64,000 bases of DNA, taken from Octopus vulgaris (Eukaryota). Numbering within the stretch: position 1 is the stretch's first letter; every line of letters begins with the position of its first letter. Under the pieces are notes generated by a model. It was given only the letters and a program-made list of their open reading frames with translations, was not told the DNA's origin and searched no databases. The DNA is taken from contig OX597817.1 in the NCBI GenBank assembly GCA_951406725.2, positions 15,686,001-15,750,000 on the forward strand. The letters run 5' to 3'. Below, piece after piece: positions 1-54,721 of this stretch. Both the position numbers and the translations under genes were made by a program.

Positions 1-261
1 CTTTATTATTGTTCTTATCTTTGTCTTAGATCTTTCGTCACACATCCTGTAACCTCTTCGGCGACTCTCCAGCCTACGTGTGTCCCCACTGTGTTCTTTT
101 TAGTCTATTCTGTGTTTCCTCCCGTTCTGTTTAGTCCACAGAAAGACAGAATAGACTAAACAGAACTGGAGGAAGCACGTAGAATGGAGAGTCGCTGAAG
201 GGGTCATAGGAGGTGGAGCGAATGATTTAAGACAAAAGACTCAAAAATAAGAACAATAGTA
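1..261. repeat. Imperfect inverted repeat (~110-bp arms), each arm carrying a degenerate minimal hammerhead motif pointing outward
   Basis: CCTGTAACCTCTTCGGCGACTCTCCA pairs with TGGAGAGTCGCTGAAGGGGTCATAGG, TTTAGTCTATTCTGT with ACAGAATAGACTAAA, TATTGTTCTTAT with ATAAGAACAATA. HHR-like at 23-65 (-) and 191-233 (+). Confidence 0.8.
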
Positions 262-349
262 TGAAATGAAGAATGAATATATAATGCGTGTGTTTAGTTG
301 GCAAAAAAATGATACTCCAAAATATAACAACGTGTGTGTGTGTATACAG

Positions 350-499
350 GGAGAGAGAGAGGGAGAGAGAAAAGAGACGGCAAGAGAAAGAGAGATGGAG
401 AGAGAGAGATGGAGAGAGAGAGATGGAGAGAGAGAGAGAGAGAGAGAGATGGAGAGAGAGAGAGAGAGAGAGAGATGGAGAGAGAGAGAGAGAGAGAGA
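350..499. repeat. (GA)n microsatellite with GAT interruptions
   Basis: Seen directly; source of the spurious ER-rich ORFs. Confidence 0.97.
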
Positions 500-799
500 T
501 TACTTTCACTAAAGAAATAATTTTTTTTTTAAATAAAAACTATTTTGACTTCCATGAATGAAATTCTTCATATTTTCTATAATTTGGTATTCTGACTTTT
601 GTTCTAATTTATTTAACCCCATTTTATGAATGTAATATTAATCTTTGTTGGTACATTTGTTTTAATAATAGGCCTGTCAAAACAGACTCGTACATTGATT
701 AAAATAACAGTTAGGTTCTATTCTGTTTGGTTGCCGCTTTTCAATTTCTTCAATTGATTTCATATTTGGTGCATTGAAGTAACTTTGTATGATAATTAT

Positions 800-1412
800 T
801 CGTTTCTACTCTAGGTACAACGCCCGAAATTTTGAGGGAAGGGGCCAGTCGATTAGATCGACCCTAGTACGCAACTGGTACTTAATTTATCGAGCCCGAA
901 AAGAAAAAAGGCGAAGTCAACCTCGGCAGAATTTGAAATCAGAACGTAAAGACAGACGAAATAGTGCTAAGCATTTCGCCGGGCGTGTTAACGTTTCTTA
1001 TTTCTTTATTGCCCACAAGGGGCTAAACACAGAGGGGATAAACAAGGACAGACAAACGGATTAAGTCGATTACATCGACCCCTGTGCGTAACTGGTACAT
1101 AATTTATCGACCCCGAAAGAATGAAAAGCAAAGTTGATCTCGGCGGAATTTGAACTCAGAATGTAGCGGCAGACGAAATACCTATTTCTTTACTACCCAC
1201 AAGGGGCTAAACACAGAGAGAACAAACAAGGACAGACAAACGGATTAAGTCGATTGCATCGACTCCAGTGCGTAACTGGTACTTAATTTATCGACCCTGA
1301 AAGGATGAAAGGCAAAGTCGACCTGGGCGGAATTTGAACTCAGAACGTAACGGGGGACGAAATACGGCTACGCATTTCGCCCGGCGTGCTAACGTTTCTG
1401 CCAGCCCGCCGC
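800..1412 (-). mobile_element. Cluster of three nested/tandem copies of tRNA-derived SINE family B
   Basis: Repeated CTGGTAC...TTTATCGACCCCGAAAGGATGAAAGGCAAAGTCGACCTCGGCGGAATTTGAACTC (B-box GAGTTCAAATTCC on -); same family as 17179 and 30056. Confidence 0.85.
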
Positions 1413-1679
1413 CTTGTTTACAGTTTGATATTAGAACACGTGCAGCTAACAACAGGCATATCAAAACAATTGACCAACTCAGAAATTTAAAGCACGCTCA
1501 GAATAGTTCCTCTCTATTATTCATATTGAGTGTGCTTTAATTTCCGACTTATGGACAACTAACTGATTAGTTATATATCACCTTTGATACGGGGAGTATC
1601 GCAATAGGCAACTATATAGCTTGTATTTTTATAGATGCATTTTTAGCTGTGCTACTCTTAAACACTCGTGAAAAGCAAG

Positions 1680-52108: not shown

Positions 52109-52668
52109 TTCTATGGTTATATTTTTCGGTTATACTTTCGTTTTTTTTTGTTTGTTTTTTTGCTGTCATCATACTGTGGCCATGCTGGAGTACCACTTTG
52201 AGGAATTTTTAATAGAATGTATAGACCCCAGAATTTTTTTATGTTTTTCAACCAGCGTATGAAGTTAAGCCAAGAAGGTCTCTCCACATGCTAGAAATAA
52301 CAGCCAAATCTGTTGGTTATTCTTCGATTTTTTTTTTATTTTCTAAAAATATTTTTAGTTGTTTCAGTCATTGGACTGCGGCCATGCTGGGGCACGGCCT
52401 TGAGGAATTTTTAGCCGAACGAATCAACCCCAGAATCTTTTTGGGGTGATTTTCAACCAGCACATGAAGTTAAGCCTAGAAGTTCTCTCCACGTGCTAGA
52501 AATAACAGCCAAATATAATTTTTTTAATATAATTTCACGTAAGCAAAAACAGAAATCGTTATTGTAAAAAAAAGAAGCTTTTATTTTCCAAAATTACAAT
52601 TTCTAAGTAAACAAAATATATTCAATACATTTCTATATTCAAGAGATGAGGAATTATGTACATTATTT

Positions 52669-53958
52669 GGATCTTTTCAAATTTGTGGCCAGGACCCCAG
52701 ATCTTTCTAGTTAACTAAATAATTTGAAACTTTGTGTACTCATAGAGTGGAACTAGTTTATTCACCAGTTGGAACTAGTTTATTTGAGAAAAATCTATTT
52801 TATGACTTTAATCGTAGATTAAAACTGCGAATTTTAACCAATGAGATTGCTTGTTTTCATATCTAAAACGTTACTGCGATCTGTTAGTGTGACGTTGAAA
52901 GCAGACGAGGGAAGTTTGTCTTTGAAGTTACCGTCTAGGGGAAGCATTGATGTACATGTGTGTGTGTGTTTGATGGGGTGTGGGAGACAGTATGTTGTGT
53001 AAGTGAAGTGCTTCTGTTAGTGTGTGTGAAGAGACAGAGAGAGTAATGTGTGAAAGAGAGAGATAACTGAAATTTTTTACTCGGTGTATGTGTATATGTA
53101 TGTCTGCATGTATGTGTGTGTGTGTATGTATCTATGTATGTATGGCCATACATACATACACACACACATACATACACACACACATACTTACACATACATA
53201 CACACACACATACATGCAGGCATACATATACACATACACCGAGTAAAAAATTTCAGTTATCTCTCTCTTTCACACATTACTCTCTCTGTCTCTTCACACA
53301 CACTAACAGAAGCACTTCACTTACACAACATACTGTCTCCCACACCCCATCAAACACACACACACACACATGTACATCAATGCTTCCCCTAGACGGTAAC
53401 TTCAAAGACAAACTTCCCTCGTCATAAAATCGCTTCCTCTTAGTCTCTTTCGCTTTCATTACTTATGTAAAAAAATAAAAGTTTTTTACGGAAATCGACG
53501 GAAAACTTGTGCTACGACAAGCGAAACTTCGCCTAAATTTCTTGCCACTTCTTAATAGCAAACGAAAGCAAGTACTAACAGAATGGAAACATTTTCAATT
53601 TAATACATGTGGCTTATTAACTAGTTTTAAATATTGTTATTAGAAGGTGGCTGACTATAGGATCCTGGAAACATGAGTACGTTAAATAATTAAGATGCGC
53701 TTGTTTACATTTAAGATGTTTAATACGTCACGAAATTGGTGGTCGAGACGGAGTAAATAAAATAAAGCCGAATGACGGAATATCATTGGTTAAAATTCTA
53801 ATTATTAAACAACGTTAAACTTAGAAGTTACAATTCCGTTTTCATTCTGGTTTACAATTAAGTTTACTTTTGACACATTCTACCAGTATACGAAGTTTCA
53901 AATTGTTTGGTTCAGTAGGAAAAATTTGAAAAAACTGGCTTCAGAATAGAAAAGATCC
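52669..53958. mobile_element. Non-autonomous TIR element with GG..CC ends and 8-bp TSD (Merlin- or Mutator-like)
   Basis: CATTATTT|GGATCTTTTC ... GAAAAGATCC|CATTATTT; longer imperfect subterminal inverted repeats. Confidence 0.85.
52904..53423. repeat. 520-bp near-perfect palindrome nested in the TIR element
   Basis: GACGAGGGAAGTTTGTCTTTGAAGTTACCGTCTAGGGG... mirrors ...CCCCTAGACGGTAACTTCAAAGACAAACTTCCCTCGTC; centre near TATGGCCATA (53141-53150). Confidence 0.93.
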
Positions 53959-54125
53959 CATTATTTACATCTGACGGATATATCTGACGAGCGTATGGTT
54001 AGTGGTTAAGAGTTCGATTCCAGGCAGTGACCCTGAATAATGATAATAATAATAATAATAATAATAATAATAATAATAATCATAATAATAACATCAAAAA
54101 AATATCTTAGGTTCGAAATTTCCCC

Positions 54126-54173
54126 AACATACCTGATGAAGGCTGGAAGGTATATCAGCCAAAACGTTGTGTT
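54126..54173 (+). ncRNA. Minimal type I hammerhead motif, G12A-degenerate
   Basis: aacauac-CUGAUGA-a-ggcug..cagcc-AAAA-cg-UU-guguu. Confidence 0.6.
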
Positions 54174-54721
54174 AACAACAAACAAGATGAGGACAAATAT
54201 CCGTCAAATATAAATAATGTAAATAATGAAAATATATTCAATCGAAAATAAATAAGTAGAATAGAATAACAGAACACTTGACTCTTTACTACTCAAAGTA
54301 CGTATTGTCTGAATTCTAACAAAAGGGAAAGCATTTACTTCAAGAAATGTGTAGAAACATAAAAACGATAAGAAGTACGTTTGAATGACTAGCCTTCGGC
54401 GCCATAATTCTGTTAGACCTTCAACGGCCGGAGGAAGTTCAAAAGGTCAGCTCATCCTCATTAATCTGTAAGTTCTGATAGAACAAAACAAAATACTTTT
54501 TGTGCGACTAAAAATTCTTCAAGGCGGTACCCCAGCATGGCTGCAGTCTAATAACTGCAAAAAGTAAAAATAAAAAAAGAATTCGGATGTAGTTTCTTTT
54601 TTTCATTTGCAAAATGAGCCCCTATTAATTTTGCTCAGATTGCTTTCAATTTTGGTGTATCGATGCAACTCCGAATTTTGGTTACGATCAACGAATTACT
54701 TTATCGCGTAAATTAAAGAAT

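Follow-up and report, generated by a model that had tools for sequence, protein, structure and literature searches.

A rewired, non-circularly permuted hammerhead fold in the 3' ends of octopus retroelements that probably cuts element RNA

Hammerhead ribozymes of several kinds accompany mobile elements. PMC4209133 (Cervera and de la Pena 2014) describes minimal type-I hammerheads in the pseudo-LTRs of Penelope-like elements that form many heterogeneous families per genome and have a short palindromic helix III, an extra base after A9, a U3-A8 core or opposite-strand pairs 100-700 bp apart. Retrozymes of the type without long terminal repeats (LTRs) are described, in the portions available (PMC7229834; Li et al. 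2026, bioRxiv 10.64898/2026.07.22.740005), as non-coding tandem hammerhead units, proposed to depend on Penelope elements. Type-SGC hammerheads (HRIMA-1 and variants; Eckert et al. 2023, PMC10085705, consulted in part) have their strand blocks in the order S-G-C; a short linker separates one pair of arms of stems I and II, and on the opposite sides the two stems are connected by a helix. We analyzed a 64,000-nucleotide (nt) stretch of the Octopus vulgaris genome (assembly GCA_951406725.2, contig OX597817.1, positions 15,686,001 to 15,750,000, forward strand), hereafter the window, in which a preliminary description had listed eleven hammerhead-like loci. In our judgment the window probably contains decayed 3' ends of many retroelements, nine families of which carry the known minimal hammerhead and two a rewired fold that likely cuts the element RNA at a predicted site.

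The rewired fold was found in five families: F7515 and an R2-type long interspersed nuclear element (LINE), both represented in the window, and family X, a Naiad-like family and family Y. All five have stems I, II (with an upstream arm), III and P in common. At the two window loci, GAAA precedes CUGANGA and an upstream strand, block S, supplies the stem III arm, the UH cleavage site and the stem I arm; the S-G-C block order and all conserved core bases are present at family level. As in type-SGC hammerheads, a short linker separates the arms of stems I and II and a further helix, P, joins the free sides of those stems; it is paired in 96% of the F7515-superfamily alignment and 86% of the family X alignment. 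The difference lies in the core, which in this non-circular order is opened between A9 and G10.1: the 5' arm of stem II is detached from A9 and stands upstream of block S, and two extra helices, Q and R, enter the opening. From 5' to 3' the fold reads Q strand, hairpin R, stem II arm (starting with G), helix P arm, cleavage strand, a linker of 1-5 nt, the second stem II arm with GAAA and a stem III arm, the P partner, the stem I arm with CUGANGA, and the Q partner. Helix Q, in which the strand after A9 pairs with the strand before R, is clear in F7515, X and Y and weak in the LINE and Naiad families, and hairpin R lies at or beside stem II in most folded copies of all five. No stem II arm directly follows CUGANGA as the type-SGC form would require, that position offering no pairs in X and the LINE and about one or two in Naiad and Y. 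The catalytic bases and the UH rule are kept across these unrelated families, with H being C, A or U in searches whose descriptor excluded G at that position.

Family F7515 occupies 7298..8534 on the minus strand as a partial tandem of a non-coding Penelope-like unit of ~840 nt between (TA)n tracts. Its better core (strands IIa, P, S, G, P' and C) spans 8355..8436, with a predicted cut between 8410 and 8409 and one stem III mismatch; hairpin R and the 5' strand of helix Q follow at about 8437-8485. The second core, at 7515..7596 on the same strand, would be cut between 7570 and 7569; a mismatch adjoins this site and likely impairs the copy. The LINE, an internally deleted R2-type copy at 9543..10680 on the minus strand, comprises a copy of the 3' untranslated region (UTR), a 5' part with an N-terminal frame (9846-10262) and a 3' end with a local fold-back; decayed rewired motifs lie at 9611-9675 and 10588-10656. 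All four rewired copies in the window are damaged, and because of this damage a strict SGC descriptor found no match in the window; the 8355 copy passed only when that descriptor was relaxed.

Both loci had been listed among hammerheads of Penelope-style architecture. Neither is a type-I hammerhead, and 9611/10581 derives from an R2-type LINE, not from Penelope. A CCHC knuckle and a PD..E.K motif occur in its upstream frame; RVT_1 and zf-RVT are listed for longer relatives, some of them with R2-like names, and no GIY-YIG domain appears among the 120 matches listed. None of 24 other copies of this family is inverted at the motif. We presume the element to be HERO-like. In the window copy the 3' UTR, 5' part and 3' end stand head to tail, as from a circular or tandem template. 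Readings of the 9611 motif as hepatitis delta virus-like or twister were considered by eye and dropped. Sequence searches of Pfam and the PDB with the Penelope and LINE fragments returned no matches.

Genome-wide, exact patterns of the rewired fold numbered 4302 for family X and 2649 for F7515, with none in reversed controls, and an evenly spaced 800-kb sample of the genome contained three five-helix matches against 31 in all among 432 shuffles. Family X, which is absent from the window (example L330:1180-2545), is a non-coding tandem unit of ~857 nt with the rewired fold. All 40 of its scored matches are identical over 126 nt; the family is very young and so probably still mobile. Family Y is represented by a single copy (L133:338-422), which has every part of the rewired fold, among them helix Q and an R of 7 bp without mismatches. 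The layout of F7515 and X resembles that of the non-LTR retrozymes in the portions of those reports available, from which they differ in having units of ~850 nt and a rewired rather than a type-I fold. The 5-bp stem II before GAAA in X (L330:1520-1565) is identical to that of the type-I family at 54129-54172, which may be chance or a trace of the way in which the rewired form originated.

Among 15 F7515-superfamily copies, 96% of cells are paired and 11 of 20 pairs show double-sided changes, a level reached in none of 500 shuffles; controls in which strands were slid were 34-48% paired. In stem II the upstream arm forms Watson-Crick pairs and shows compensatory change three times, and two of the six pairs of helix Q changed on both sides. 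We regard the closing of the same helices in five families lacking sequence similarity (a blastn comparison that covered F7515, the LINE, X and the Naiad-like family) as stronger evidence for the fold than this covariation.

That the rewired form likely cuts RNA in the animal is suggested by the young copies of family X, since these often begin at the predicted cut. We scored the 40 copies, of 1074 candidates, that were tied at 100% identity downstream of GAAA, all on two contigs (C1 and C2). Twelve of the 40 start no more than 16 nt after the predicted cut, and five of these 12 start at the cut itself (+/-1 nt, given the overlap with TA flanks); three of the five were scored as 19 by the script through flank letters and were counted at the site. 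The next start beyond the interval is 19 nt upstream of the cut. Five further copies start 35-170 nt upstream of GAAA and 23 run beyond 190 nt. Such a pile-up has a binomial p of about 5e-10 under a uniform model with insertions assumed independent. For F7515 we scored 30 copies in the order of their genome positions, with start boundaries set against flank-free references. Nine have their start in this interval, mostly at 7-10 nt past the site (p about 9e-5); another eight begin between 58 and 123 nt upstream of GAAA, and the other 13 extend farther.

The observations fit a model in which a transcript through a partial tandem would be cut at UH, and a Penelope-type protein with reverse transcriptase (RT) and GIY-YIG domains would nick (TA)n and prime synthesis at an internal point 140-270 nt downstream of the cut. 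Where the template had been cut, synthesis would run off at or just before the new 5' end and leave short copies starting at the site; uncut multimers or ligated circles would serve as templates for the longer partial tandems. Internal priming by a Penelope protein is established in vitro for Poseidon in the available part of PMC11167929. In the LINE 3' UTR, the cut would fall some 130 nt short of the 3' end. Stalling at the structure would be expected to place starts at its 3' edge, unlike the pile-up observed.

Several points weigh against cutting by this fold. Not one of the 30 F7515 copies starts exactly at the cut. For the anole Poseidon, the part of PMC11167929 at hand reports hammerhead mutants without effect on in vitro insertion and no RNA reads ending at the site. 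In PMC10085705, CUGANGA and the stem II arm are treated as one unbreakable block, so that an opened core may not be active. A search of 85 F7515 loci and 60 X loci gave no coding partner with a similar 3' end, only scattered neighboring insertions. Most rows of the F7515 alignment were picked by a descriptor that demands the helices, a single subfamily of two sequences supplies the covarying pairs of stem II and Q, and in family X by itself covariation is weak (2 of 23 pairs, a level reached in 68 of 500 shuffles). Folding runs gave no Q in the LINE and gave Q in one of three Naiad copies. Finally, the strand after A9 in F7515 also pairs formally, at 100%, as a G.U-rich stem II.

An explanation that we consider unlikely is that the fold is a conserved RNA handle for the element protein that is non-catalytic or rarely cuts, and that the pile-up reflects an internal transcription start or a template-switch hot spot. 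Penelope is credited with an internal promoter (cited in the available portion of PMC8557442), hammerhead cleavage is dispensable in vitro as far as PMC11167929 was available, and the 16 nt after the family X site are AT rich and share letters with the (TA)n flanks. Yet five starts fall on a base that had been predicted beforehand from the fold, no copy begins within the AT-rich stretch immediately upstream of the site, the pile-up recurs in two families of unrelated sequence, and all catalytic bases and, within a descriptor that excluded G, the UH rule are kept across unrelated families.

Still less probable is that F7515 is an ordinary type-SGC hammerhead whose stem II is built from the strand right after CUGANGA, the upstream arm being incidental. 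The downstream arm does pair in every one of the 15 copies; G10.1-C11.1 never varies, and there is an additional A, as Penelope minimal hammerheads have. However, half of its pairs are G.U, it is still 93% paired when slid by three, and it covaries with the Q strand; it has no counterpart of note in the other families (no pairs in X and the LINE, about one or two in Naiad and Y), and the Watson-Crick upstream arm has its three compensatory changes.

Beyond the window, the rewired fold bears on Naiad elements, which were reported to lack canonical hammerheads in the available portion of Craig et al. (2021; PMC8557442). Naiads share with the octopus elements (TA)n targets, partial tandems and inversions, as far as that source goes, and in contrast to the published account the 3' ends of the Naiad remnants in the octopus genome carry a complete rewired fold. 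By eye, these remnants match the Octopus Naiad records of the PMC8557442 supplement, and seven Naiad records among the matches listed there can form stems I, II (upstream), III and P at their 3' ends: Naiad_Obim, Naiad_Ovul, three near-identical records and two others. Naiad_Ovul is itself flagged 'HHR_half_core' in the available supplement, and two nematode-region records there have the type-I order instead. We lean toward the view, from sequence comparison, that an active opened hammerhead is the ribozyme that had seemed missing from many Naiads, that it also resides in the 3' UTRs of R2-type LINEs and in young non-coding Penelope parasites of ~850 nt, and that its cutting in the germ line sets the 5' ends of about one-third of new insertions.

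The rewired fold would offer an answer to why Naiads seemed to be without hammerheads and, if active, would break the stated rule that CUGANGA and the stem II arm are inseparable. With it, non-circularly permuted hammerheads, so far a matter of metatranscriptomes, are placed on animal chromosomes, where they number in the thousands: the rewired copies are chromosomal, in the 3' UTRs of animal retroelements, in contrast to the published SGC forms, which PMC10085705 did not find in the genomes of known organisms. The pile-up bears on whether Penelope-type ribozymes cut in vivo, a question left doubtful by the anole Poseidon work in vitro. In the literature searched, which lay outside subscription papers, bioRxiv supplements and the supplements of Eckert et al., we found no description of the fold; it appears to be new, and the collection of type-I motifs around it is known and would by itself be ordinary.

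The type-I motifs are nonetheless genuine. All motif coordinates in the preliminary description proved correct, and the motifs exceed the shuffled level: a relaxed type-I descriptor gave six matches at a score of at least 11 in the window, whereas 560 local dinucleotide shuffles averaged 0.21 and never gave more than 2, with a descriptor that was drafted after the loci were known and that missed 23/191, 23205, 25096 and three of the four 10844 repeats. A seventh, weaker match at 31530 was a false positive, its family copies lacking the core. A strict canonical (type-I) descriptor had no match in the window, and Rfam gave no hammerhead among 150 of 289 matches listed. Damaged window copies are common: 23 and 191 each have a core change, 54126 lacks G12, 10581 lacks A6, and 7515 has its cut-adjacent mismatch. 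All 11 loci belong to dispersed repeat families, with at least 390 to at least 4027 first-look candidates per locus, and 13 family representatives showed no meaningful mutual similarity by blastn. Nine of these families have CUGANGA (or U3-A8), stem II, GAAA, a short palindromic stem III, UH and stem I in C-G-S order at family level.

For these nine families nothing substantial distinguishes the octopus motifs from the minimal hammerheads described in the available text of PMC4209133, which have the same heterogeneity and the same short palindromic helix; a U4C fixed in the 25096 family is not seen there, and the two rewired loci fall outside this type. In the octopus genome each family keeps its mismatched base in stem II. 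This base had been put down to a possible lineage-specific core, an idea that does not hold: File S2 of PMC8557442 includes elements from Hydra, sea-cucumber, copepod and Chara with U.U or C.A at the same position.

Three of the nine families place their motifs in the 3' repeats of elements with RT and GIY-YIG domains (7117, 25096 and 10844), and the earlier label of short non-coding ribozyme parasites does not apply to them, as they are plain 3' ends of coding elements. The first is represented by a 5'-truncated, frameshifted, presumably Penelope-like copy on the plus strand at 3440..7283 with an inverted 5' arm, an RT fragment and a C-terminal endonuclease (4713-5880); the label follows from its motifs, Pfam giving no match. 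It has U3-A8 type-I hammerheads at 7118-7159 (plus) and 3540-3580 (minus). Relatives of the 7117 family include many 753-aa open frames and retain the U3-A8 motif with a stem II that is altered yet paired. Intact Penelope-like elements with a U3-A8 hammerhead and a compensated stem II were seen (L496:860-910), and many of the 753-aa frames score identically, a sign of recent activity.

The second comprises tail-out inverted 3' ends of a coding Penelope-like family at 24886..25198, with type-I motifs at 25096-25158 (plus) and 24927-24986 (minus). An endonuclease C terminus lies upstream of the motif in two relatives (L115 and L128), and U4C is present in all 28 motifs counted; one relative (L147) has the canonical U at position 4. 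The third is a Penelope-like 3'-end palindrome with a one-sided tail at 10690..11295, its type-I hammerheads on both strands having U.U or C.U at the base of stem II. An 84-nt unit is amplified locally there, in four copies plus one inverted (the fourfold amplification at 10821-11154), and other examined loci are two-armed palindromes or single arms. The family consists mostly of palindromes of ~330 bp, two armed at 16 of 20 loci, with a tail on one side at 11 of 20 and on both sides at none, and one of 27 loci (L029) has a GIY-YIG remnant upstream. A palindrome with a one-sided tail is the Penelope layout described in PMC8557442. Of the EN+ insertion layout, with 5' truncation, partial tandems, an inverted 5' copy, a one-sided tail of 30-40 nt and a (TA)n target, one-sided tails and two arms are seen in the 10844 family, and tandems with inversions in F7515, X and 41528.

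The parasite label does stand for several families, with units of 355, ~481, ~484 and ~840 nt showing partial tandems, inversions and (TA)n targets. The first three combine a non-coding tandem monomer with a type-I hammerhead, as retrozymes do, and match the published non-LTR retrozymes in the portions available: a 355-nt retrozyme-like unit on the minus strand at 41364..41947, with an inverted 5' arm and a hammerhead at 41528-41573 that has C.A at the base of stem II; a unit of ~481 nt with its hammerhead at 26697..26754 (minus) and an extra A before G12; and a unit of ~484 nt with its hammerhead at 23205..23268 (minus). Kinship between the 23205 and 26697 units was considered and found no blastn support. 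Upstream of the 23205, 26697, 41528 and 23 families, no coding sequence was found. The 23 family forms a tail-out inverted pair at 20..236, with type-I motifs at 23-65 (minus) and 191-233 (plus), each with a core change. The remaining motifs are a type-I minimal hammerhead on the plus strand at 3174..3226, with a 7-bp stem II, a palindromic stem III and C3 changed in the window copy, and one of a very abundant family at 54129..54172 (plus), which has lost G12.

Six inverted pairs lie in the window (20-236, 3440-7283, 9543-9634, 10692-11201, 24886-25198 and 41662-41947). The design of a 5' inverted copy that had been claimed for six loci is indeed that of five, all tail-out; the pair at 9543-9634 is a fold-back at the 3' end of the LINE 3' UTR. 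Nine of the eleven families are already described Penelope-type minimal hammerheads or their non-coding tandem derivatives; this type-I collection is in print, as are the inverted arms, the choice of TA targets and the unusual base in stem II. It is very improbable that every locus is a short type-I parasite of a single class, mobilized by Penelope and marked by a lineage-specific core. The four tandem units without coding sequence, the five tail-out inversions and the TA targets speak for this view. Against it, three families are the 3' ends of coding elements, another lies in the 3' UTR of a LINE, two depart from type I, and the stem II variant is published for other phyla; refuted as a whole, the idea holds for the four non-coding units only.

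The rest of the window contains features of other kinds. At 49710-52109, direct repeats flank frames that resemble gag, protease and RT, and we take the whole for an LTR-retrotransposon-like remnant. The open frame at 21415-22344, with 309 aa and an ordinary composition, is possibly an exon of a host gene. Very long ATAC and ATA microsatellite tracts occupy 42054-46317 and 61926-63361.

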